This document shows, piece after piece, positions 3,763 to 53,293 of a stretch of DNA of 64,000 nucleotides. Under the pieces are notes generated by a model. The model worked only from the letters and a program-made list of their open reading frames with translations. It had not been told where the DNA came from and did not search any database. Source of the DNA: an uncultured Myxococcales bacterium (GTDB lineage: Bacteria > Myxococcota > UBA727 > JABDBI01); NCBI GenBank assembly GCA_964493205.1, contig CAZBMJ010000002.1, positions 50,238 through 114,237 of the forward strand, in the 5' to 3' direction. How positions within the stretch are numbered: position 1 is the stretch's first letter; every line of letters starts with the position of its first letter. A program made the position numbers and the translations under genes.

Positions 3763-4140
3763 TTAGTAACCTTCATAATAGTAAATTGTATATTGATTAG
3801 AAAATAATTTATGAAATATAATTTCGTTAGATTTAACTGTTATTTCATATTGTGTACCATCTCCCCATGCTCTATATACTTTTTCATTTTTTACATCTTT
3901 TTTATCAGTTATAACATACATTTTTATACGTTCTCCTGTATTATGATGTATTACACTATCATAAATATTTATTATATTTACTCGTAGATATCTAGGAGTT
4001 ACTAAAAAATTTTCTTGATACGCTAACGATGTACTTATATAGTTTTGTGTATTACCTATTATAGGTAATAGTAATAATAATAAAATTTTAAATTGTTTCA
4101 TATTTGACGATTTGATTAATAATCTTATAACACTCATCAA
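3763..4140 (-). CDS. Secreted hypothetical protein. The true start is probably the internal Met at ~4101.
   Basis: Signal-peptide-like MKQFKILLLLLLPIIGNTQ begins at residue 14. The upstream extension overlaps the polymerase C-terminal ORF. Confidence 0.45.
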   Translation of the reverse strand: MMSVIRLLIKSSNMKQFKILLLLLLPIIGNTQNYISTSLAYQENFLVTPRYLRVNIINIYDSVIHHNTGERIKMYVITDKKDVKNEKVYRAWGDGTQYEITVKSNEIIFHKLFSNQYTIYYYEGY

Positions 4141-4960
4141 TATACCATTGACGATTTAAATTTGGATATCTTTCTTTTTCTTTAATAATACGTTCTCCTT
4201 TTTTATAATCATATATATCTATTTTAGGTACATTCATTAGTAATGTAACAGGTGTTTGTGCCTGTACTGCTTGTATTGTACCTACTCTTTTTCCTCCTGT
4301 CCATAATTGAGATATAGTTTGAAAACCTCCAGCATAATATCTTATAAATCTACCATCAAATAACTCTGATGTAGCTACACCCTTATCAGGATGGTATTCT
4401 GTTAACATCCATTTATAAAGTTTACTTCCATTATTTCCATAACAAAACTCATGAATATTGTTTTCTTCATTAATAGTATCTTCTATAGGTATTCCTTCTA
4501 TGAAGAATTTCTTTAATGCTTTAGGAATTACTAAGGCACTAAAATCTTTATGATATTCTCCTGATTTTAGTAAATCATCATAATCTTGAAATATGTTTTT
4601 AGTTTTTATATTATTATATGTATCAATAGCTAAATAATTATTAACATCTTTGATAACCATTTTAGTATATTCTACATATTCATAAGGTATATCATCTATT
4701 TCTGTTAATTTATCAAATAAACTTATTGCTAAATCTAATTCAGATCTTTTTATTATAAAAGTAAGACCATCTGTATTAAACTGTAATGGATAAAAATGTG
4801 ATAAGTTAGATTCTAACATATCTACCATCATAGTTAACGTAAGCATACCATTAACAGTTGTACCTATAGTTGCTTTAGTATCATATAGAAAACTATATTC
4901 GCTATTTCCTAACGTATTGTTATCTCTAAGGCTCTTTATCCTTAGATTCTGCACTTTCAT
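4088..4960 (-). CDS. Family B DNA polymerase, C-terminal fragment (motif C plus thumb)
   Basis: YDTKATIGTTVNG resembles the Tx2GR region and LQFNTDGLTF resembles motif C (DTDS-like), downstream of motif B which ends the upstream ORF. A YYAGGF segment is also present. Confidence 0.6.
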   Translation of the reverse strand: MKVQNLRIKSLRDNNTLGNSEYSFLYDTKATIGTTVNGMLTLTMMVDMLESNLSHFYPLQFNTDGLTFIIKRSELDLAISLFDKLTEIDDIPYEYVEYTKMVIKDVNNYLAIDTYNNIKTKNIFQDYDDLLKSGEYHKDFSALVIPKALKKFFIEGIPIEDTINEENNIHEFCYGNNGSKLYKWMLTEYHPDKGVATSELFDGRFIRYYAGGFQTISQLWTGGKRVGTIQAVQAQTPVTLLMNVPKIDIYDYKKGERIIKEKERYPNLNRQWYIDECYKIINQIVKYETI

Positions 4961-5052: not shown

Positions 5053-6186
5053 CTATCTAGTCGTTACACCTTCATTGTTTGTTAACACAATGCTTGGCTC
5101 GGTATTACTTTCTTCTAAAGCTTTCACCGAATTTAAGGAATGTTTCATATTAGATTGCTCTAATAAGCGGCTGTATCTATAATACATGTTATTTTTTTGT
5201 CTTTGTTTAGTATTTACATTAATTTTAGGATTTATATCATGAATAGTGAGAAATAATATTTTTTTATTATCACCAGCATATTTAAATTGCAATCCTTTAT
5301 AATGTTTTACACGATTATTACAACAATTAGTAATATTTTGAACTTTTAAGTAGCTAATATCTCCAGTTCTAGAATTAGTATTTCTATCTAATATAGGAAA
5401 ATATTTTGGATATTTAATAGAATACTCTTGTATATCTATTGAACTTCTAAAAGTATTAATATATTTACCAAAAGTATCATATACTTCTATATAGGGAGTT
5501 CTGTTTTCTCTTGTTTTAATAGAAGATATCTTTCTAGCTTTTTTAAGTTCTTCAGAAATTGTTTTGGGAACTTTTAAATGATCAAATGTATAACCATTTT
5601 CTTTAGTTCTATTTTTAGAAGAATCTCTAGGAGTAATATAATATATTGCTAATTTCTTATATTTTTTAGGTACATCATCTACAGTTATTTCATTATTTTT
5701 TATTTTTTTTGAATAATTTATAGAAATATTTAAAGTTTCTTTAAAAGATTGTGCTCTTTTTTTATAAACTTCTTCTGAAAATTGATAACCTCCTGTTGCT
5801 TTAATATTAATATTGTAACTAAATTTTTTAGATATACATAAGTCATCTAAATATTTTTGTTCTCTATCGTGTAAAAATTCTAAATTATTAATTATTTCTA
5901 ATATTTCAAATTTAAAAATATTTTCTCCCCATTTATTATATGAAGATTGTAAATAATAATTTTTATGTTTTCCATTTTTTAGGTCTCTAGAATGCTCATT
6001 AAATCTATCTTTAAAAGATCTTCCTGTAGAGCCTACATAAATTTTATTGTTTTTTAAATTTGTAATTTTATAAATACCAAATTTTTCAAAATTGTCTAAA
6101 TTATCTACTATCATTTTATTATTTTTTATTACCACAAAGGTAATAAAAATAATTGTAAATATAGCGTAATAATTAAATTTTAACAT
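5053..6186 (-). CDS. GIY-YIG homing endonuclease inserted between the two DNA polymerase fragments
   Basis: FGIYKITNLKNNKIYVGSTGRSFKDRFNEH matches GIY-(N10)-YVG...R...H. The ATG lies 2 nt after the stop of the polymerase N-terminal ORF. Confidence 0.85.
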   Translation of the reverse strand: MLKFNYYAIFTIIFITFVVIKNNKMIVDNLDNFEKFGIYKITNLKNNKIYVGSTGRSFKDRFNEHSRDLKNGKHKNYYLQSSYNKWGENIFKFEILEIINNLEFLHDREQKYLDDLCISKKFSYNINIKATGGYQFSEEVYKKRAQSFKETLNISINYSKKIKNNEITVDDVPKKYKKLAIYYITPRDSSKNRTKENGYTFDHLKVPKTISEELKKARKISSIKTRENRTPYIEVYDTFGKYINTFRSSIDIQEYSIKYPKYFPILDRNTNSRTGDISYLKVQNITNCCNNRVKHYKGLQFKYAGDNKKILFLTIHDINPKINVNTKQRQKNNMYYRYSRLLEQSNMKHSLNSVKALEESNTEPSIVLTNNEGVTTR

Positions 6187-6190
6187 ATAT

Positions 6191-7348
6191 TTAACTACCG
6201 TAGGAACTATTTAATATAATTTTTAAGCAATGATTAATAATAGGATGTGTTTTCTTACTATATTTTTTTCTCTCATTAAAAGTATTTAAAAGAAATTTAC
6301 CATAACTTTCACCTAAATGAGCAGGCACTCTACCATGTTTCATAGCAAAATGAGGATAATATGAAACTTTATCCCAATCTAAAATTATATATTCTTCACT
6401 ACTTTGATATATACCAGGTTTTGTACTAAAATGTAGACCTCCAGCAGCATATACTATTTCACCATCATAATAAGGAATAATTTTACTAATTTGATTTTTT
6501 AAATTAATAAGTTTTTTATTACTATCAATATTAGATTTTATACTTGCATCAAGAGTTATATTTTTATAGAAATCTAAAGCAGATTTCAATACTGGATTAA
6601 CAAATTTATATTTATTAATATATGGTAATATTACTTCAGAAATAGCTATTTTTTCATTATATGTTTTCAGTTTTTTGACATCTGTTTCACTGATATTTAA
6701 ATCATAAGATAACTGTTTAACCATATATTTTTTAGCTATATCTGGTTCTGTAGAGTTAAGAAGATCTATTTTATTAAAATCTCCAAAATCTATTCTAAGT
6801 TTAAGTAGTTCTTTTGTAAATTTATATACATCTACAGTAGTTTCTACATCATATTTACAATATTTAACAATTTCTTCATCTTGTTTTTCTGTAAGTATAA
6901 GGTCATTAAAATGATAAGGTAAATCTTTAATAGATTTCTTCCTTAAAGAAAATTCTAATTTTTTTAATGATGTAGTTTTAGCACTACGAGGTCCAAAATT
7001 ATTTATAGACATTAAATCTATAGTCTTGTTGCAAAACTCTGATTCTCTATATATGGGCCACTCAGCACCTATATACTCATCATTAAAAGCTTTTATACCT
7101 TCATTGTTTATTGAAGGTCTCTTTGTAATATAAGTTAATATATTCATATCATAAAAAGAATTGTAACCCACAAAGTAAGTATCTTTTTCTTTTATAAGAT
7201 AGTTTTTTAACTTGTCTAATTCATTTATTTGAGTTACTCCATTTACTGTCCATAGTTTAAATGTTAAATATTCCTTGTTATAAGGATCATAAAACACTAC
7301 TAGAAAGTAATTAGGATATACTTCGCAGTCTAGGAAGATTAATCTCAT
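6191..7348 (-). CDS. Family B DNA polymerase, N-terminal fragment (3'-5' exonuclease domain plus palm motifs A and B)
   Basis: Exo I IFLDCEV; Exo II-like YNSFYDMNIL; Exo III YCKYDVETT. Motif A-like LDWDKVSYYPH (DxxSLYPS). Motif B KIILNSSYGS is followed directly by the stop codon. Confidence 0.75.
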   Translation of the reverse strand: MRLIFLDCEVYPNYFLVVFYDPYNKEYLTFKLWTVNGVTQINELDKLKNYLIKEKDTYFVGYNSFYDMNILTYITKRPSINNEGIKAFNDEYIGAEWPIYRESEFCNKTIDLMSINNFGPRSAKTTSLKKLEFSLRKKSIKDLPYHFNDLILTEKQDEEIVKYCKYDVETTVDVYKFTKELLKLRIDFGDFNKIDLLNSTEPDIAKKYMVKQLSYDLNISETDVKKLKTYNEKIAISEVILPYINKYKFVNPVLKSALDFYKNITLDASIKSNIDSNKKLINLKNQISKIIPYYDGEIVYAAGGLHFSTKPGIYQSSEEYIILDWDKVSYYPHFAMKHGRVPAHLGESYGKFLLNTFNERKKYSKKTHPIINHCLKIILNSSYGS

Positions 7349-8040
7349 ATCTTTCTATTTGTATATTGTAAAAATTTTATTATTTTTAATTTATCATAGT
7401 GAATATAATTATCACTTTTATTTTTATATATCCATATAAATCCTTTATATGTGTTTTTATAACCTGAACAACAAGAACTAATAGAACTTAATTTAAAATC
7501 GGGATGATCTTGATTAATTTCTTTTCTAGAAGAATATTGTTTTATAATATTTCTATTAATATCGCATTTTAAAATATAATATTTACTTTGAGAATTAGCA
7601 ATTTTTAAATAGTAATCATTTAATTCTTTTTTCGTAAATTTAGAATATCTTTCTTTTAATCTTAATCTATTTAAATTTTTAGTAGATTCTCTAACTATAT
7701 TACATTCATTACTATTATCTTCTTTACAATTATATCCATATAAAGAATTAGTTACATTATATTTTTTCATATAATGTAATTCTAACTGTTTAAGTAAATT
7801 TTCATCATATTCACTAATAGAAACTAATACATAATATTTGAAATTTTCTATACCATATTTATTTACAGAATTTAATAAATACTGATTTTCTTTCTTACTA
7901 TTATATTTAAAACATGCATTATGAGTAGAAATTCTTTGATAAATATTCTTACTCTGTCCTATATATTTCTTGTTATTTATAGTATTTTCAATACAATAAA
8001 TACCACTTTTATATCTATCTTCTTTTTTTAATTTTAACAT
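7345..8040 (-). CDS. GIY-YIG homing endonuclease
   Basis: SGIYCIENTINNKKYIGQSKNIYQRISTHN. ATGA overlap with the polymerase N-terminal ORF start. Confidence 0.85.
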   Translation of the reverse strand: MLKLKKEDRYKSGIYCIENTINNKKYIGQSKNIYQRISTHNACFKYNSKKENQYLLNSVNKYGIENFKYYVLVSISEYDENLLKQLELHYMKKYNVTNSLYGYNCKEDNSNECNIVRESTKNLNRLRLKERYSKFTKKELNDYYLKIANSQSKYYILKCDINRNIIKQYSSRKEINQDHPDFKLSSISSCCSGYKNTYKGFIWIYKNKSDNYIHYDKLKIIKFLQYTNRKI

Positions 8041-20143: not shown

Positions 20144-20764
20144 ATGACAAAAGAAATTTTAATACCATTAATAGAAAAAGGTCTTTCTACTTATAAAATA
20201 GCAAAAGAATTAAATTTAAGTAATTCCACTATTATATATTGGGTTAAATCTTTAGAATTATCTGATTTATATAAATCAATATCTCTTAGAGACAATTTAA
20301 AAAATACAATAAATTATAAATATTCTAAAGAAATTATAGAAGATTTTGCTAAAAATTCAAATTCATTATCAGAACTTCTTGAAAAGTTTAATCTTGTGCC
20401 ACGGGGTAGAAATTTTGATACAATAAAAAAATATATTAAATTACATAATATAGATATATCTCATTTCAATATTAATAAAAATAGAAAAGGTATAATTAAA
20501 GAACGTTCTATTAATAGTTATTTACATAATGAATTTAAAATAGGTAGTACTGCATTAAAGAAAAAACTTTATAAAACTAATCTAAAATTAAGAATTTGTG
20601 AGTTATGTGGTCAAGATGAGATATGGAATAATAAAAAAATGTCTCTTATATTAGACCATATAGATGGAAATTCTAATAATAATAATTTAAATAATTTAAG
20701 AATAGTTTGTCCTAATTGTAATGCTACTTTAGATACACATTGTGGAAAGAATAAACGTTCTTAA
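20144..20764 (+). CDS. HNH homing endonuclease with an N-terminal HTH
   Basis: CELCGQ...LILDHIDGNSNNNNLNNLRIVCPNCN matches C-x2-C...H...N...C-x2-C. The N-terminus YKIAKELNLSNSTIIYWVK is HTH-like. Confidence 0.7.
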   Translation: MTKEILIPLIEKGLSTYKIAKELNLSNSTIIYWVKSLELSDLYKSISLRDNLKNTINYKYSKEIIEDFAKNSNSLSELLEKFNLVPRGRNFDTIKKYIKLHNIDISHFNINKNRKGIIKERSINSYLHNEFKIGSTALKKKLYKTNLKLRICELCGQDEIWNNKKMSLILDHIDGNSNNNNLNNLRIVCPNCNATLDTHCGKNKRS

Positions 20765-20808
20765 ATTATTTAAACTAATGTACTACCATTATACTACAAA
20801 TCATTATA

Positions 20809-21006
20809 CTAACGGCTGTATTTAAGACAACCATTCTTAAGTTCTTTAGCTTTTGTATATCCTTTTTCTATCATATAATTTAGGATATCTAATTCATAAG
20901 ATAATAAGGATTCAAAATTCATTACTAAATCATCAAATGTGATCATGATTATTATTTTAAGATTAAGAAATATATAACCAGCTACCTCCGAAGAGGTAAC
21001 TGGCAT
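20809..21006 (-). CDS. Small hypothetical protein (65 aa)
   Basis: Short ORF at the edge of the GC-richer island. Weak support. Confidence 0.25.
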   Translation of the reverse strand: MPVTSSEVAGYIFLNLKIIIMITFDDLVMNFESLLSYELDILNYMIEKGYTKAKELKNGCLKYSR

Positions 21007-21026
21007 TAGTTTTTATGATGGAGAGG

Positions 21027-21443
21027 TTATCCTCCTACAGGCGTTGCTTGTGCAGTCACTGCATTTGCATTTTGGGAGATCATCAGCTCATCAGATGCAT
21101 TCACATTATCTGTGAATACATAATTTTGATAATAGGCACCTCCGTTAATCTGCATTTGCTCACCTGTTGTAGGATTTACAACTGCTTCCTGTCCAGGAAA
21201 GAATGGTTCAGCAGATGTTTGTCTGATGATTTTTCCTACAAGTCTTTGACCCGCAGAAAATCCTTTCAAATCAACTAATTTACCTCTGATAAAAGCAACT
21301 CTGTTGCTCTTGTTCAAGATACCATTGCTGAATGAAGTTGTGCTACTGTCTACTCTTACTGTACCCCAATCAGGGTTTTTAGTAGAAGGTGTAACAACTA
21401 AACCTGTTTGTGGATGAGCCACAACTGTTGCAAAATTTGACAT
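21027..21443 (-). CDS. Hypothetical protein (138 aa); GC-richer and Ala/Thr/Gly-rich
   Basis: ~41% GC by eye versus ~28% for the rest of the genome. Confidence 0.5.
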   Translation of the reverse strand: MSNFATVVAHPQTGLVVTPSTKNPDWGTVRVDSSTTSFSNGILNKSNRVAFIRGKLVDLKGFSAGQRLVGKIIRQTSAEPFFPGQEAVVNPTTGEQMQINGGAYYQNYVFTDNVNASDELMISQNANAVTAQATPVGG

Positions 21444-21513
21444 ACAATAAATTTAAATAATTAAATAATAAACAATTAAAAAGAACATGTGCTATTAACA
21501 CATGTCCTAACTC

Positions 21514-21939
21514 TTAAATTACTACTTCTTTCTTGCGGGATTTTTTAACTTCAGGAACTGCTGTATCCCAATCTGCAAGTAGTGCATTTTCTTCTTCTGG
21601 AGATAATATTACAGGACGTGCTTGCGCTGTTCCTGCATATGCTGCGGTTGTACTCTGAGTTGCTGTTGCTTCATAAGCTCTCTTCTCCTGTAACCATTTG
21701 ACAAATGTTTCTGATTTTTCTTTATCAACAACTGTAATGTCCAATCCATCAAGAGCTAAACCTACGTGTGCAAATGCCTGCAAAACAAATAAGTTCTGAA
21801 GATTATTCTTAAGCATTTTCCAAAAACCTTGGACATTTAATCCAGATGCTCCTGTAATCATACCATTTGTTCTCTCCACTACAAAATGATCTTTGTTAAG
21901 AGAAGATAAATCACTTAGGCTTTTAATAATTTGTGCCAT
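21514..21939 (-). CDS. Hypothetical protein (141 aa); GC-richer
   Basis: Complete ORF. Composition resembles 21027 and 23600. Confidence 0.5.
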   Translation of the reverse strand: MAQIIKSLSDLSSLNKDHFVVERTNGMITGASGLNVQGFWKMLKNNLQNLFVLQAFAHVGLALDGLDITVVDKEKSETFVKWLQEKRAYEATATQSTTAAYAGTAQARPVILSPEEENALLADWDTAVPEVKKSRKKEVVI

Positions 21940-22038
21940 AAAAATTAATTTTTAGATTATATAATAAGGTTAATTAATACAAAAGAAAAACTACCCCATT
22001 GCTGAGGTAGTTATGATCCACTACTACATGGAGAATAC

Positions 22039-22398
22039 TTAACTAGGTATCTTCATGGGTATTCCCAACAGTACACTAATGTATTTTGCTCTAATAGCTG
22101 CTATCGTGGTTGAACTATAAACTGCTGCACCATTATGGTACAGAGTATAAGCACTCCCACTATAAACAGATTGCCATTTACCTTCGGCAGTCCACTCAAG
22201 AGTTTTCTTAGAAGGTATCATTCCTGCAGATGCTTTAACAGCTTTCTCATATTCATCTATTGAATAAGATACTGTCACCATTGTGGTAGTCTTATTAATA
22301 GACTGTGCATTCGTGGATGCTGCAGCCATAATCATGAAAAGAGAAACAAGACCTATGTAAAATAGGTTTGCGTGTTTTTTAAATAATGTGTAATACAT
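22039..22398 (-). CDS. Secreted hypothetical protein; GC-richer
   Basis: Signal-like FYIGLVSLFMIMAAASTNAQS. Confidence 0.5.
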   Translation of the reverse strand: MYYTLFKKHANLFYIGLVSLFMIMAAASTNAQSINKTTTMVTVSYSIDEYEKAVKASAGMIPSKKTLEWTAEGKWQSVYSGSAYTLYHNGAAVYSSTTIAAIRAKYISVLLGIPMKIPS

Positions 22399-22465
22399 AA
22401 GTTTGATTTTAAAGGTTAATTAATAGATAGTATGCATCTTATCAGGAAACCTGAGGATGTATTGA

Positions 22466-22918
22466 CTAAAAATGTTTGTTGTAAGTTAAAGGTTTAGGAA
22501 GTATTTCTTTTACCTTTCTATAAATTTGTACAGATGTAGGGTAGGTGTTATTTAAATAATAGAAGTTTAATAGCCATTTTTTAAATATATCCCATAATTT
22601 ATCATCTAGGTATTTAGCAGTATTATAGTAATTACCTGCAAACTTATTTTTTGTTTTGTGATGAAATCTTTGATAAGTTTTTTTTAAATTTAATTCATTA
22701 AATAATTCATCCATAACCTTAATAGGTTTTTCTTTTATTTGATTAGCAAACTCATAAATGTGATTGTTGTAAGAGTATATTAAACCTATACGTCTTGTTT
22801 CACCTAATATAAATAATTTAGCAATGGTTTTTAAATCATCTATTGAATTACTTGTTGCTATTGGTGATAAACCATCACCCCAACCACTCCAGCTTAAATA
22901 TAAAATATACTTGTTCAT
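22466..22918 (-). CDS. Hypothetical protein (150 aa)
   Basis: Complete ORF with typical AT-rich composition. Confidence 0.45.
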   Translation of the reverse strand: MNKYILYLSWSGWGDGLSPIATSNSIDDLKTIAKLFILGETRRIGLIYSYNNHIYEFANQIKEKPIKVMDELFNELNLKKTYQRFHHKTKNKFAGNYYNTAKYLDDKLWDIFKKWLLNFYYLNNTYPTSVQIYRKVKEILPKPLTYNKHF

Positions 22919-23240
22919 AACTATTTATTTAGAGGTTATAAAATCAAAAGAAAAGTATCAGGACCGTCAGAACCAGTAGTCCAGTTAAGAAGGATTAAGA
23001 CTGTGTAACAATAATACATATTAATGTCATAATTAGGTGATTTTGAGGTAAATTATAGTGAGTATATTTGTGATTGTAATGTATAGGAAGCTCTATCTGC
23101 AACCAAACAGTTGCATATTCATAACTCCTTGACTATCAAAGCCTTATCTCACAATAATTCTACCTAAATTTATACATAAAGCCTGACAAGTATAGCCTAA
23201 ATAGACTATAACTATATCACTAAAGGTATAAAATCACCCT

Positions 23241-23266
23241 ATATAATCAGAGTGATGGAGTACAAA
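23241..23266 (+). repeat. Direct repeat copy 1: ATATAAT-CAGAGTGATGGAGTACAAA
   Basis: A 26-nt unit recurs three times on the plus strand in an ORF-free interval. Each copy starts with a TATAAT-like hexamer. Confidence 0.6.
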
Positions 23267-23492
23267 AAATAATTAAACTAAAAGTAAACTAGCTTAACTT
23301 ACTTGACTCATGCTCTTCTCCTAAAAAGAATGATGATTAAATAAGCTAGCTAGTTTATTAAGTTATCTATTTTGCATCCCATGCAAGAGCATCTTCTCTT
23401 GTCATGATGATTCCATTAACTGATACCATAAGATTTATATTTAGAGGTGAATAATCTTATTAATGATGCAGTATAATTAAATATAACTGCAA

Positions 23493-23518
23493 ATATAAAC
23501 AGAGTGAAGGAGTACAAA
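23493..23518 (+). repeat. Direct repeat copy 2: ATATAAA-CAGAGTGAAGGAGTACAAA
   Basis: Followed by hairpin GGAGCA-TGAGC-TGCTCC and then ATTT at 23541-23561. Confidence 0.6.
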
Positions 23519-23599
23519 AAGAAAAAAAGTAACAACAGCTGGAGCATGAGCTGCTCCATTTAAACCACTGCCTTAGTGGTACTGTCTTACTGCGCAATG

Positions 23600-23878
23600 C
23601 TACAAAGCAGCAAAGTCTGCGTCAGCAAAAATGCTGTTAGCCTTGTCTGTAGCGTAGAATCTCTCTTCACCTTGGGCGTTAGCACCATGAATGATGGTTA
23701 ATCCTGTTAGTCTGTCACCTGCTTTAATCCCTGTGCCCTTAGCAGCAGAGATAAGAATCTCTTCACCTTTGGTGGTACGCACTGCACAAAGCAATACGTT
23801 CTTAGGACTAAGAGCAAAAGCAGAAGCTGTAGCAGCATCAAATGCAGCTTTGAATGTTTGAGTTGTGTAGGATGTCAT
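23600..23878 (-). CDS. Hypothetical Ala-rich protein (92 aa); GC-richer (~45%)
   Basis: MTSYTTQTFKAAFDAATASAFAL... Strong compositional contrast with the genome. Confidence 0.5.
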   Translation of the reverse strand: MTSYTTQTFKAAFDAATASAFALSPKNVLLCAVRTTKGEEILISAAKGTGIKAGDRLTGLTIIHGANAQGEERFYATDKANSIFADADFAAL

Positions 23879-23916
23879 GATTTAAAGGTTTAATGTTATG
23901 AAATATGTACACTCAA

Positions 23917-23943
23917 ATATATCTAGAGTGATGGAGTACAAAG
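23917..23943 (+). repeat. Direct repeat copy 3: ATATATCT-AGAGTGATGGAGTACAAA
   Basis: Third copy of the 26-nt unit, immediately 5' of the start of gene 23600..23878. Confidence 0.6.
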
Positions 23944-24010
23944 CTTAATTACCACAACCGCCTAAGCATCAGCAACAACGCATTAGCAGTTGCTACTAAC
24001 AATAGTAGTG

Positions 24011-24150
24011 AGCACAACACACAAGAACAAGACAACACACAACAACAGTTGCTACCATCACACAGTACACAGACAGACACTAGGAACACACAGCACACGC
24101 TGCAGGCTGCACTGCACAGGAACTAGCACAGAGCAAAGAGAAAACTAAAC
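24011..24150 (+). repeat. A+C-rich, T-depleted low-complexity tract
   Basis: CACAACACACAAGAACAAGACAACACACAACAACAG...ACACAGACAGACAC... has almost no T on the plus strand, in a genome that is ~70% A+T. Confidence 0.5.
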
Positions 24151-24159
24151 ATAACTTCT

Positions 24160-24214
24160 AGTACCCCACCCCCACCTTAAAAGTTTAGAGCAAGGGGGGG
24201 AGGTACTTTTTTTT
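24160..24214 (+). terminator. G/C-run hairpin plus T8; candidate plus-strand terminator
   Basis: GTACCCCACCCCCACCTT...AAGGGGGGGAGGTAC followed by TTTTTTTT. A second G-run GGGGGCGGGGG lies at 24222-24232. Confidence 0.45.
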
Positions 24215-24784
24215 AGCAAAAGGGGGCGGGGGTATAGTGGTACAAGTACACAAACTCAGTACCACATTATATTTTGTAACTACAGACACAAACTCATCTA
24301 CAAAATAATTTAAAATATATTATAAAGTCCGAAAGTCCAGTCCAGCTAAAACACTATATATCCTTCGGACTGGACTTAGATACCTATACCTAAAGAATAG
24401 TTTTTAATATTTTTTAAATTATTTTCATTTTACCCCCATTTATTAAATTTATTTAGCGTATCTTTGCACTATGTTTTTGAGCATAGACTCTGTACCTACA
24501 TTTTTGAGGAGAAATCCTGGTTTAATGTAATTATCAGATGCTGCTAATTATATAGTTCAAGTTCTGAGGATACACTTAATAGTAATGAAGTATCGTTCAA
24601 TAAAACTCCTAACCTAAGTCCTATGATATGGTGAAGAGCAAACTATCAAACAAGACTATATACAAAAACATCAGGCTGGTTAAAAGAAGTAACTGTGAAA
24701 TTTTCACCGTTTAAACCCCCTATGAGCTAGCGAGTAGGGTTTCCAAGATTGGATAGCTTGAGGTATATCTAAAATTAAGTAAAT

Positions 24785-25306
24785 ATGAGAATAGAGCCTA
24801 TTATAAAGGAACTAGAAGAAGTAAAAATAAGACTAAGTAAGTTACAAGATTCTTTAAAAGAGTTTGATGATACTGCTAATAAATATCGTCAACAACTAAT
24901 AATGAAGAGTACTCAATCTGAAAAAGTTATTAAGGTGAAACTTAAATCTCTAAAAATAGATTTTGAATTTCAAAAAATTATAAAAAATAATAAAGCTTTT
25001 AGAATTGTAGATTTTTATTTACCTAAATATAATCTTATTATAGAAGTAGATGGTTTTTATCATTCTGATAATGAACAAAGAGGTAAAGATTTAATAAGAA
25101 CTAATCAATTAGCTGATTTAGGTTACGATAAAATTCTAAGATTAGATAATATAAAAGCTAAAAATATAACAGAAGCTGATTTGTTGAAATTAATTAAATT
25201 AGCTAAGCCTATAAGAAAATCTACAAATAATAAATTACAAAAAATAATAAAATATAAGCAACGTATAGAGCAACTTGAAAAGCTAGTACGAGATTTAAGC
25301 AAATAA
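24785..25306 (+). CDS. Vsr/DUF559-like endonuclease-domain protein with an N-terminal coiled coil
   Basis: AFRIVDFYLPKYNLIIEVDGFYHSDNEQRGKDLIRTNQLADLGYDKILRL matches the ...IExDGxxH...D..R...L..GW.VLR core. Confidence 0.55.
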   Translation: MRIEPIIKELEEVKIRLSKLQDSLKEFDDTANKYRQQLIMKSTQSEKVIKVKLKSLKIDFEFQKIIKNNKAFRIVDFYLPKYNLIIEVDGFYHSDNEQRGKDLIRTNQLADLGYDKILRLDNIKAKNITEADLLKLIKLAKPIRKSTNNKLQKIIKYKQRIEQLEKLVRDLSK

Positions 25307-27949: not shown

Positions 27950-27978
27950 GGAGAGTATTTTTACTCTCCTTTCTTGTT
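27950..27978. terminator. Bidirectional rho-independent terminator between convergent genes
   Basis: GGAGAGTA-TTTT-TACTCTCC is a perfect 8-bp stem, flanked by A8 on the 5' side and TTTCTTGTTT on the 3' side. Confidence 0.7.
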
Positions 27979-28814
27979 TAAAAATCATACTTAATTTTTC
28001 TTGGAATAATACTCTCTATTTCCTTCTTCATGTATTCAAATCTATATGGTTTGTTTAGATGTGTAAATCCCAGATATCTAGGAGTAAATCCTCCTTGCTC
28101 TAATAACCACGCATACGCACTTATCTGTAGTCTATAATGGTTGTAGTTACAGCAGCCTAAATGGTCTAAAGGACTTAACATTTTACCGCCATAAAAATTA
28201 GCAGTTTTTATTTCCTTATTAGTCTTATGATCATCTATATCTATATACCTTACTCCTTTAATAGTATCTATAAATACAAGGTCTGCTTGTCCTGCTATTT
28301 TAACCTCTGAATTCCATAATATACATTCAGGATGAAAACCATCTTCTAAATCTATTAGTTGTTTAACAGAAGAAGTTCTAACTTCCTCTCCTTTCTTAAA
28401 TTCAATAATACTAGAAGGAATAGTCTTACATTCTATATTAGTGTAAGGATTAATACACACACCACTTCTTAAAGCTTGTTGTTCTTTAAATGTGTGATAA
28501 TCATTTCCTTTTTTAATAGAAGCATTTCTCTTATCTTCCCATTCTTCTAATATCTCTTTGATAACAGGTGCTACAAGCTCATCAGAGACCACTGAGCGAA
28601 AGAAATTTATAATCCTAGGATCAGTATGATGAAGTCCTGAGATTTGTCTCAGACGCTTAAACTCTCCTTTACCTAAAATCCTTTCATAAGCTTTATACTT
28701 ACTGTAGTGATCTCCCATAAAAGGACGCTTGTACTTACCTATCAAAGTACTAACAGAAGTATATACTTCATTCTCTAGTTCGTAAGTGTGTAATTTTGAA
28801 TTAAATTTTATCAT
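27978..28814 (-). CDS. PD-(D/E)xK-type nuclease-like protein; low confidence
   Basis: GQADLVFIDTIKGVRYIDIDDHKT is D...(D/E)xK-like. A Cys cluster LGCCNYNHY is also present. Confidence 0.4.
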   Translation of the reverse strand: MIKFNSKLHTYELENEVYTSVSTLIGKYKRPFMGDHYSKYKAYERILGKGEFKRLRQISGLHHTDPRIINFFRSVVSDELVAPVIKEILEEWEDKRNASIKKGNDYHTFKEQQALRSGVCINPYTNIECKTIPSSIIEFKKGEEVRTSSVKQLIDLEDGFHPECILWNSEVKIAGQADLVFIDTIKGVRYIDIDDHKTNKEIKTANFYGGKMLSPLDHLGCCNYNHYRLQISAYAWLLEQGGFTPRYLGFTHLNKPYRFEYMKKEIESIIPRKIKYDF

Positions 28815-52837: not shown

Positions 52838-53293
52838 ATGTATGATGAAATAGAGGAAATTTATGGTAAACCTTGTAGAGAGAGTAATCTTACATTTGCT
52901 TCTATTCCCTTTCCATTAATTATTGCGTGGGATAAAACAAAAACAACGAGAAGAATAAAATGTCACAAACTTGTAAAAGATGACGTAGAAAATATTTTTA
53001 AAGACCTACTTAGGGAGTATGGACTAAAAAAATTAGAAGAGCTTGAGATAAATGTTTTCGGAGGTTGTTACGAGTGTAGAAATATGCGCAACGGAACAAG
53101 AAAATCAATGCATTCATGGGCTATAGCAATAGACCTCAACCCGGAGAAGAATGGCTTAAAAACAAGATTTAGACAAGCGCAATTCTCAGGGCGTGAGTAT
53201 AAAAAGATGATGGACATCTTCTATAAATATGGTTGGATTAATTTAGGTAAAGAAAAGAATTATGATTCAATGCATTTTGAGAAGAAGATATAA
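52838..53293 (+). CDS. Endolysin, peptidase M15 (L-Ala-D-Glu or VanY-like) family
   Basis: SMHSWAIAIDLNPE matches the SxHxxGxAxD zinc-binding motif. C-terminal YDSMHFE matches D..H. Confidence 0.65.
   Translation: MYDEIEEIYGKPCRESNLTFASIPFPLIIAWDKTKTTRRIKCHKLVKDDVENIFKDLLREYGLKKLEELEINVFGGCYECRNMRNGTRKSMHSWAIAIDLNPEKNGLKTRFRQAQFSGREYKKMMDIFYKYGWINLGKEKNYDSMHFEKKI

Follow-up and report, generated by a model that had tools for sequence, protein, structure and literature searches.

Why does one short part of an AT-rich phage genome hold genes that are clearly richer in guanine and cytosine (GC) than those around them? The question is raised by a 64,000-nucleotide stretch of contig CAZBMJ010000002.1 (assembly GCA_964493205.1), which we refer to as the window and whose own coordinates are used throughout. 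Four small minus-strand genes at 21027-21443, 21514-21939, 22039-22398 and 23600-23878 form its GC-richest cluster, and a preliminary description of the DNA had singled them out as a compositional island that was either horizontally acquired or made up of very highly expressed genes. We propose, with a probability of roughly 0.6, that the island is a conserved, vertically inherited early cassette of a crAss-like phage, and that it is abundantly expressed.

Composition of the four genes and source of their GC excess

The GC content of the window is 28.3%, in agreement with the earlier estimate of ∼28%, and its 80 open reading frames (ORFs) average 27.6% (standard deviation 5.2). The gene at 21027-21443, which encodes a 138-amino acid (aa) protein, has 39.6% GC, those at 21514-21939 (141 aa) and 22039-22398 (119 aa) have 36.4% each, and the one at 23600-23878 (92 aa) has 44.4%, the highest value of any gene; together they take GC ranks 1, 2, 4, and 5 among the 80 ORFs. 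They had been put at ∼40-45% GC, and are clearly GC-richer than the window, with a measured range of 36-44%. When the order of ORFs was permuted, 885 of 100,000 permutations produced five neighboring ORFs whose mean GC was as high as that seen here (P ∼0.009), and we regard the composition signal as genuine but modest. The region described as a GC-rich island (21010-24400) does contain the GC-richest ORF cluster, but it is discontinuous, a mosaic in which gene 22466-22918 is AT-rich (24.7% GC) and the ORF-free segment 22919-23599 (30.8% GC) lies close to background. Across the whole window, GC content peaks in non-coding DNA, at 23945-24240 (46.3%, z = +3.5).

Ala, Gly, Thr, Val, and Pro make up 35-44% of the four proteins, compared with a typical value of ∼20%, and Asn, Lys, Ile, Tyr, and Phe are scarce in them, so that the contrast drawn earlier between Ala/Thr/Gly-rich island proteins and the Asn/Lys/Ile/Tyr-rich bulk holds. 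The GC excess of each gene was partitioned by recoding its protein with the genome’s own codon usage. In the four genes the amino-acid part amounted to +0.033 to +0.079 and the synonymous part to +0.030 to +0.083, with 40-63% of the excess attributable to the amino-acid sequence alone. By synonymous excess the four genes rank 1, 3, 4, and 6 of 77, gene 23600-23878 being first (+0.083, with 33% G+C at third codon positions) and gene 22039-22398 third. Elsewhere the synonymous part was +0.014 in the major capsid gene and +0.001 in the Ala/Gly-rich structural gene 45547, and the AT-rich gene 22466-22918 inside the block shows no shift (+0.007). The structural genes 39899, 45547, and 49281 on the plus strand reach 35-36.5% GC, nearly all of it through amino-acid composition.

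The synonymous shift runs toward C/G-ending codons and ATC, and away from ATA and TTA. C-ending codons account for 0.34 of the two-fold pyrimidine boxes in the island genes, 0.15 in the rest of the window, and 0.22 in the capsid gene; the corresponding fractions are 0.25, 0.55, and 0.37 for ATA among Ile codons, 0.28, 0.62, and 0.44 for TTA among Leu codons, and 0.14, 0.06, and 0.06 for G+C at four-fold sites, those of the island genes resting on 12-29 codons per class in genes of 92-141 codons. This is the direction taken by the capsid gene, expected to be the most expressed late gene, and the shift is stronger in the island. Such a pattern is not the footprint of a uniformly GC-richer donor genome. 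Both the amino-acid bias and the codon shift recur in the relatives examined, and therefore reflect long-term selection.

Two other minus-strand genes, 8629-9120 and 10543-10815, had been said to share the signature of the island; they are mildly GC-rich (33.5 and 35.5%), but the synonymous part is small in both (+0.024 and +0.021). Neither has a family match, and the second has a homologue in the related contig L002 (17521-17823). Ranks 2 and 5 of 77 for synonymous excess belong to genes outside the island, 52838-53293 (plus) and 27978-28814 (minus), the latter a lone minus-strand gene among plus-strand genes that is strongly conserved in relatives L004 and L009. These two genes may be highly expressed too.

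Genome context and conservation in relatives

The window belongs to a crAss-like phage, distant kin of Cellulophaga phage phi14:2. The TerL, portal, and major capsid families characteristic of Crassvirales are all present, with matches to PHROG crAss-type families for TerL (phrog_6681, 7e-93), portal (phrog_6547, 6.5e-71), and major head protein (phrog_11589, 1.8e-49), and the best tblastn match of TerL is phi14:2 (32% identity), followed by Flavobacterium and Bacteroides crAss-like phages. Relatives closer than phi14:2 are metagenome contigs only, and wastewater is the source of several. The phage looks lytic, and a non-exhaustive search of the window showed no lysogeny genes. Up to ∼24 kb the ORFs are on the minus strand, and from 24.8 kb onward they are on the plus strand; the cumulative GC skew is lowest where gene orientation switches, at 24-25 kb. 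The GC-rich block is the head of the leftward (minus-strand) arm, which carries replication genes and also holds DNA polymerase fragments (6191-7348) and a phrog_850 ‘RNA-binding protein’ gene (12200-13870).

The 138-aa protein has homologues of ∼140 aa at 44-82% identity, and the gene order 22039 > 21514 > 21027 is kept in L002, L004, L008, L009, L013, and L017 (phmmer), three of the four genes being syntenic in relatives as distant as 44-59% protein identity. Contigs long enough to judge share one layout. A divergent junction and an ORF-poor or ORF-free zone come first, and then the genes for a small protein with a putative signal peptide, a protein of ∼100-148 aa, and the 138-aa homologue; next there is often a homing endonuclease, encoded on the opposite strand, and then a protein of ∼700 aa. 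Composition is conserved along with order. In 13 of the 14 loci compared, the 138-aa homologue is richer in GC than 93% of windows of its own size (z +1.4 to +3.4), and at the most divergent locus, with 29% identity, it is richer than 77%. For synonymous excess it takes rank 1-3 in five of seven relatives, and the first gene past the junction takes rank 1-2 in L002 and L004. The deviation is thus not private to this genome, and orthologues deviate likewise in their own AT-rich genomes. Among the six relatives named above, there is no instance of the flanks lying adjacent without the block for genes 22039, 21514, and 21027. The pieces that do vary between close relatives are the AT-rich gene 22466-22918 and a DUF559 endonuclease gene.

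A profile-derived scan of 185,579 bacterial and archaeal species, one genome each, found no relative of the 138-aa family. A profile scan of IMG/VR added nine members, including four on contigs of 95-100 kb. Pattern scans of that database with single proteins yielded nothing, and neither tblastn of the 138-aa protein nor blastn of 20800-24800 matched any of 50,697 phage records. All homologues of this family lie on phage or metagenome contigs, and those examined are crAss-like. The suggestion of horizontally acquired DNA had come with a test set beforehand, and it fails that test because homologues in related phages share both composition and context. On this comparison of sequences, the island is not imported and appears to have been inherited vertically.

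Promoter-like repeats and terminator-like hairpins

A 35-nt repeat is found three times within the block, at 23241, 23493, and 23917; chance would yield 0.06 occurrences of its 18-nt core. The minus-strand sequence of the repeat is TTTGTACTCCATCACTCT-n3-TATATTTG, which corresponds to a Bacteroidetes-type -7 box with TTTG 17 nt upstream. The full pattern TTTG-N15-23-TAnnTTTG has five matches on both strands of the 64 kb, two of which are the copies designated P2 and P3. P3 (TTTGTACTCCATCACTCTAGATATATTTG; 23917-23951) lies directly upstream of the 92-aa gene and is conserved in L013-L016 and L017, P2 (23493-23527) is a full TTTG-N17-TATATTTG match that faces ORF-free DNA and is also conserved in relatives, and P1 (23241-23275), the third copy, faces ORF-free DNA with an imperfect -7 box, TATATAGG; all are on the minus strand. 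A probable further copy and candidate for the first of the array, P4 (TTGTACCACTATACCCCCGCCCCCTTTTG; 24203-24263, minus), lies 296 nt upstream of P3 and is of a C-run subtype. The first array copies of L004, L008, and L009 carry a C5 run before TTTTG, and P4 aligns with these; a CCTCCCCC..TTGC motif is found downstream of P4 both in the window and in L004. From P4 to P1 the repeats are spaced 250-425 nt apart. The -7 box TAnnTTTG is present in P3 and P2 (TATATTTG) and in a box at the start of the plus arm (TATCTTTG), and is inexact in P1 and P4.

Sixteen repeat copies from five lineages fit a single motif, comprising a T-rich tract, TAyyCAnnCACy, four bases, and TATAnnTTTG, in which the T, T, and G positions of the -7 box are at least 90% conserved. 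The upstream TTTG of P2 and P3 is not kept in the other lineages, which have the T-rich tract and TA there instead. Arrays comparable to that of the window occur in L004 (four copies, 299-431 nt apart), L008 (four), and L009 (three), and L017 has counterparts of P3 and P2. In L026, L028, and L031 repeats stand directly upstream of the homologue of the 138-aa gene; L031 has two paralogues of this gene ∼1 kb apart (8876-9262 and 9977-10411), each behind a repeat copy.

Eight terminator-like sites were found when 1.7 were expected, and four of them directly follow the four GC-rich genes, where each stop codon is succeeded by a G+C-rich hairpin and then a T run, as in an intrinsic terminator. On the minus strand, the site after the 92-aa gene (GGAGCAGCTCATGCTCC; 23534-23558) is identical in L017, the one after gene 22039 (21989-22012) has a 10-bp stem and then TTTTCTTTTG, the one after gene 21514 (21482-21508) has a 12-bp stem and then TTTTTAATTG, and the one after the 138-aa gene (20977-21004) has a 12-bp stem with six G-C pairs and overlaps the start of the next ORF (20809-21006). 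In L004 and L002, too, a strong hairpin-plus-T site comes after the homologue of the 138-aa gene.

A scan with the sigma-70 consensus was uninformative (22 sites versus 18.8 expected). DNA hairpins of the kind found in coliphage N4 promoters were considered within the repeats and rejected, as short complementary pentamers were seen by eye in some copies only. The plus strand holds a further full TTTG-N17-TATATTTG match, one of the five, at 23033-23070, antisense to the ORF-free units; judged from sequence, this match and the plus-strand hairpin and T8 tract at 24160-24213 could delimit an antisense transcript of ∼1.1 kb across the 92-aa gene.

ORF-free units and the divergent junction

The interval from P4 to P3 contains the ORF-free unit T4 (23945-24205, minus), which is GU-rich (G 29%, T 40%, A 13%) and has a GC content of 46-47%. 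It starts with a C7/G-run hairpin, and its predicted RNA folds better than shuffles do (z = -2.85). The first interval is GC-rich in relatives too (0.42 in L017, 0.41 in L004, 0.37 in L008, and 0.35 in L009) and later intervals are not; the T4 sequence itself can be aligned with close relatives only. T2 (23283-23485, minus), an ORF-free unit of ∼200 nt with 29% GC, has a long terminal hairpin and a U-rich tail, with a fold (z = -3.42) equaled by 1 of 200 shuffles. It is conserved in L013, and in L014 with two short insertions, and is not conserved in L017. A 20-codon ORF lies within it (23429-23367, minus). T1 (22919-23235, minus; 30% GC) is ORF-free DNA that separates P1 from gene 22466-22918 and is probably the leader of that gene; it folds no better than expected (z = -0.5).

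The G/C-run hairpins reported at 24160-24232 are present, and are not assigned to one strand; on the minus strand they consist of C5GC5, A8, C7, a 17-nt loop, and G5TG4. L013, L014, and L017, the last a relative at 74% identity, retain the G/C runs and A8 but differ in the loop, and the L004 junction likewise has C/G-run hairpins. A T8 tract comes after the hairpin on the plus strand, and from its sequence it looks like a terminator for that strand as well. The plus arm begins with a conserved non-coding stretch (24402-24664, plus) whose identity to L017-L019 (72.6%) is close to that of the block holding the coding gene (74.5%), and that contains the -7 box TATCTTTG at 24459-24466. The box is TAACTTTG in L017, and L004 has an identical TATCTTTGC (reverse complement) at 3987-3995. 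This plus-strand leader shows no excess folding. A 28-codon ORF (24628-24714, plus) lies in conserved non-coding DNA, as does the 20-codon ORF of T2, and has a similar start (M-x-K-S) in L017. Between AT-rich inverted repeats of 25 nt (24302-24326 and 24401-24425, 92% complementary) lies a GC-rich hairpin at ∼24330-24380 (GTCCAGTCC…GGACTGGAC); the hairpin segment is missing in L014 and L017, and therefore may be a small inserted element.

Searches of 22300-24900 against Rfam, at the gathering score and with E values up to 1, found nothing, and two tRNAs were the only hits elsewhere in the window. There was no transfer-messenger RNA (tmRNA) in the window by ARAGORN or Rfam RF00023, nor in the eight relatives scanned (L002, L004, L008, L009, L011, L013, L014, and L017), and no Y-RNA-like genes were found in the window.

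Encoded proteins

None of the island proteins had been recognized in the preliminary description, and at the sequence level this stands, since no Pfam, PHROG, or NCBIfam match reached any curated threshold; two of them do, however, give weak structural matches to proteins with an oligonucleotide-binding (OB) fold that resemble single-stranded DNA-binding proteins (SSBs). The models of the 138-aa protein (21027-21443, minus) and the 92-aa protein (23600-23878, minus) are small beta-barrels whose best structural matches, all with low scores, are SSB, PriB, and mitochondrial SSB, and which also match annotated phage SSBs. Both have disordered C-terminal tails. That of the 138-aa protein is Ala/Thr-rich, not acidic, and ends PVGG, and that of the 92-aa protein ends ADADFAAL, with DADFAAL, EEAFEAL, or DDFEDIVL in homologues. 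Neither protein matched the profile of the SSB family PF00436, profiles of the 138-aa and 141-aa families gave nothing meaningful against PDB sequences, and the first 60 kb of phi14:2 hold no homologue of either OB-like protein. Phage SSBs are made in very large amounts. Weak but coherent hints from the models suggest that at least one product may be an SSB-like protein.

A relationship in sequence between the 92-aa and 138-aa families was rejected (hhalign probability 1.4%). An exhaustive HMMER search with the 92-aa protein returned one true distant homologue (P0030), and two long repeat proteins were discounted as compositional matches. The 119-aa protein (22039-22398, minus) has an N-terminal segment resembling a signal peptide (…AAASTNA/QSI…), read from the sequence by eye, and its homologues at the same relative position in L002, L004, L008, and L017 start with a hydrophobic stretch and then (A/S)QSI. 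The 141-aa protein (21514-21939, minus) has an Ala/Thr-rich linker and is the conserved upstream neighbor of the 138-aa gene, with syntenic homologues in L004, L008, and L009 (phmmer E 1.7e-9 to 3.7e-5, 24-27% identity). The AT-rich gene for a 150-aa protein (22466-22918, minus), which lies outside the GC signal, is a variable cassette. In L013, where identity is 98.5% on the downstream side and 95% on the upstream side, its place is taken by an unrelated 121-aa gene, and in L017 it is absent and a tRNA-Leu lies there instead.

Further along the leftward arm, the 556-aa protein of 12200-13870 (minus) matches phrog_850 ‘RNA-binding protein’ (2.6e-25) and Pfam DUF7788, and has no TROVE match. 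It may correspond to an early TROVE-domain protein of phage crAss001, and would then be a candidate partner of the ORF-free RNAs. Proteins of ∼700 aa at the same relative position in relatives carry DUF8224.

A proposed early cassette and its alternatives

In the reading that we favor, the arms would diverge at ∼24.3-24.45 kb, and the leftward arm would open with four promoter-like repeats of ∼35 nt, in the order P4, P3, P2, P1, each combining a Bacteroidetes-type -7 box (TAnnTTTG) with a phage-specific block (TAyyCAnnCACy). Each repeat would start a short unit, ORF-free in the case of T4, T2, and T1 and containing the 92-aa gene in the remaining one. The variable AT-rich gene would come next, followed by the genes for the putatively exported 119-aa protein, the 141-aa protein, and the 138-aa protein, each with its own predicted hairpin terminator. 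The GC-richness would then have three sources, namely Ala/Gly/Thr/Val-rich proteins, two of which are modeled as weakly similar to ssDNA-binding OB folds; a synonymous shift to C/G-ending codons in two-fold boxes and to ATC, and off ATA and TTA; and the G/C-run hairpins together with a GU-rich first RNA at the junction. The likeliest cause would be that the products are needed early, stoichiometrically, and in very large amounts, as are phage SSBs. The composition and its partition, synteny, repeats, hairpins, and weak fold matches are shown by the sequence analysis, and promoter function, the polymerase used, the timing and level of expression, and binding of ssDNA are what we infer here; a set of highly expressed genes would fit everything computed, including flanking signals, synonymous shift, and position.

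The position of the cassette appears, by analogy, to match early and highly transcribed regions of phi14:2 and crAss001, members of the same phage order. The early genes of crAss001 lie at one genome end, are highly expressed, and include the TROVE-domain protein. At the start of the replication-gene arm of phi14:2, in the g004-g006 region, as here, ORF-free stretches of several hundred bases flank a small ORF; they are GC-richer than their surroundings (0.34-0.35 versus 0.28), and are transcribed in the direction of the arm, very abundantly from the first time point. These two long intergenic regions are transcribed above most genes, and the function of the RNAs was left open by the authors (Drobysheva et al.). 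Unlike the present locus, phi14:2 has no equivalent repeat family among its 20 largest direct-repeat families, neither phi14:2 nor crAss001 has detectable sequence similarity to it or anything alignable, and one of the RNA regions of phi14:2 is probably a tmRNA, of which none was found in the window. The latter lies at 4031-4502 (plus) of phi14:2 (L001, NC_021806.1), where ARAGORN predicts a tag of GSSVQKLAMVA*. The match to Rfam RF00023 has 46.0 bits against a gathering score of 47 (E 1.6e-16), and both the acceptor stem and the T-arm are clear. The segment is within the ‘g005-g006 junction’, reported as a very abundant, early, and persistent non-coding RNA (Drobysheva et al.), and the abundant RNA is therefore probably the phage tmRNA.

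The two modeled proteins weakly resemble SSBs of the E. coli SSB family, PriB, and T7 gp2.5-like proteins in that their models are small beta-barrels with disordered C-terminal tails; the end of the 92-aa protein is acidic-hydrophobic (ADADFAAL), and the genes are in a replication arm. They differ in that there is no sequence match, structural scores are low, and the 138-aa tail is Ala/Thr-rich instead of acidic. The early promoters of coliphage N4 are DNA hairpins. N4 resembles the present phage in having tandem conserved copies of a promoter or promoter-like sequence at the start of the early region and in injecting its own RNA polymerase, whereas the repeats here have no conserved inverted repeat and match a host-type -7 box instead. 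A published review draws the parallel with N4 for Crassvirales in general. The morons of lambdoid phages described by Hendrix and colleagues are likewise small single-gene units of deviant composition with their own promoter- and terminator-like signals, but the block is not ‘extra’ DNA, as its order and composition are conserved across the clade.

Several observations weigh against an early, highly expressed cassette. The spacing between TTTG and TAnnTTTG in canonical Bacteroidetes promoters is ∼19-21 nt, and at 17 nt it is shorter here. Promoters and terminators are consensus matches only; P4 is the weakest copy, was assigned by eye, and is inexact relative to TAnnTTTG, and the -7 box of P1 is without TTTG. 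Neither T1 nor T2 is GC-rich, and divergence of the ORF-free units is so rapid that they cannot be aligned past the 74%-identity relatives. The capsid gene is only a proxy for codon adaptation to the host. The injected virion polymerase transcribes the early genes of phi14:2, for which no shared upstream motif was detected, and by that analogy the host-type promoter array of the window may mark a different temporal class.

Other explanations of the GC-richness of the genes have to account for the same observations. That the block is a horizontally acquired moron or island, retaining the composition of a GC-richer donor such as the host, is very improbable. Its GC content is unlike that of its neighbors, its genes have promoter- and terminator-like signals of their own, as do classical morons (around single genes, these too are consensus matches only), mobile endonuclease genes flank it (HNH, 20144-20764; DUF559, 24785-25306), and the 92-aa gene has homologues in close relatives only. 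However, three of the four genes remain syntenic at 44-59% protein identity, and the GC and synonymous excess is retained in distant relatives, whereas imported DNA would drift toward the composition of the phage. The absence of a relative among the bacterial and archaeal genomes, with homologues on phage or metagenome contigs, four-fold sites of only 14% G+C, unlike a 40%-GC donor, and the AT-rich nature of the truly variable piece, gene 22466-22918, point the same way, and for 21027-22398 import is already largely refuted. It is also unlikely that the GC-richness is a by-product of protein type (small beta-rich domains with Ala/Thr-rich linkers), unlinked to expression, with a synonymous shift that is noise or local mutation. 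The large share of the excess due to amino-acid sequence alone, the structural genes at 35-36% GC with almost no synonymous part, and the small number of codons in such short genes are what one would expect of it, but the high synonymous ranks recur in orthologues of independent lineages, the shift is specific (NNC, ATC, and avoidance of ATA and TTA) and parallel to that of the capsid gene, and the unshifted AT-rich gene among them argues against a regional mutational effect.

For the non-coding DNA, a tentative possibility, which we consider rather doubtful and which is compatible with an early cassette as the explanation for the genes, is that ∼23945-24460 is mainly a DNA-level element, serving as a bidirectional replication origin, a bidirectional terminator or insulator, or both. 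The cumulative skew minimum coincides with the switch in gene orientation, G/C runs and the A8/T8 tract are kept around a variable loop, with similar hairpins at the L004 junction and T8 after the hairpin on the plus strand, and two copies of TGAGTTTGTGT at ∼24250-24295 accompany the AT-rich inverted repeats at 24302-24326 and 24401-24425. The skew minimum may merely mirror the switch in coding strand, however, no initiator-binding iterons or initiator gene was identified, and a transcript would account equally well for the P4-like repeat and for the strong asymmetry between strands, GU-rich when read in the direction of the arm. It is quite unlikely that T4, T2, and the corresponding units of L004, L008, L009, and L017 are fast-evolving non-coding RNAs that the repeat array produces abundantly and that are functionally equivalent to the abundant ‘lncRNAs’ (long non-coding RNAs) of phi14:2. 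Such RNAs might act on host translation, RNA surveillance, or defense, and one possibility is that they partner the phrog_850/DUF7788 protein (12200-13870), suspected to be TROVE/Ro-like; if so, the small OB-fold proteins could bind RNA instead of being SSBs.

An early, highly expressed cassette would not overturn current understanding, and the observation is largely ordinary, with modest leads. It is a cautionary case in that a GC-rich patch in an AT-rich phage is easily misread as import, a question that relatives settle. The phage-restricted 138-aa family and its conserved 141-aa neighbor provide a candidate SSB of the clade; the 60 kb of phi14:2 inspected carry no annotated SSB, and none was recognized among the window proteins scanned. 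A repeat array that starts ORF-free units could explain the origin of the abundant non-coding RNAs of phi14:2, and the repeats and hairpins are concrete promoter and terminator candidates for engineering or transcript mapping.

Other features of the region

The DNA polymerase fragment at 6191-7348 covers only positions 53-412 of a 663-position profile. It has a homing endonuclease gene (5053-6186) on one side and a GIY-YIG gene (7345-8040) on the other, within the region 5053-8040 (minus). The polymerase gene seems to be split by mobile endonucleases; PolB of phi14:2 is likewise annotated as joined pieces. On the other side of the junction, the DUF559/PvuRts1I-like endonuclease gene at 24785-25306 (plus), likely a homing endonuclease, is a clean indel, with positions 24799 and 25283 adjacent in L014, L015, and L016. 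An opposite-strand homing-endonuclease gene lies ∼0.7-0.9 kb downstream of the 138-aa gene in three lineages, and is of the HNH type in the window (20144-20764, plus) and in L004 (11096-11602, minus), and of the LAGLIDADG type in L011/L012 (L011 11294-11710, minus). This site looks like a recurrent insertion hot spot.

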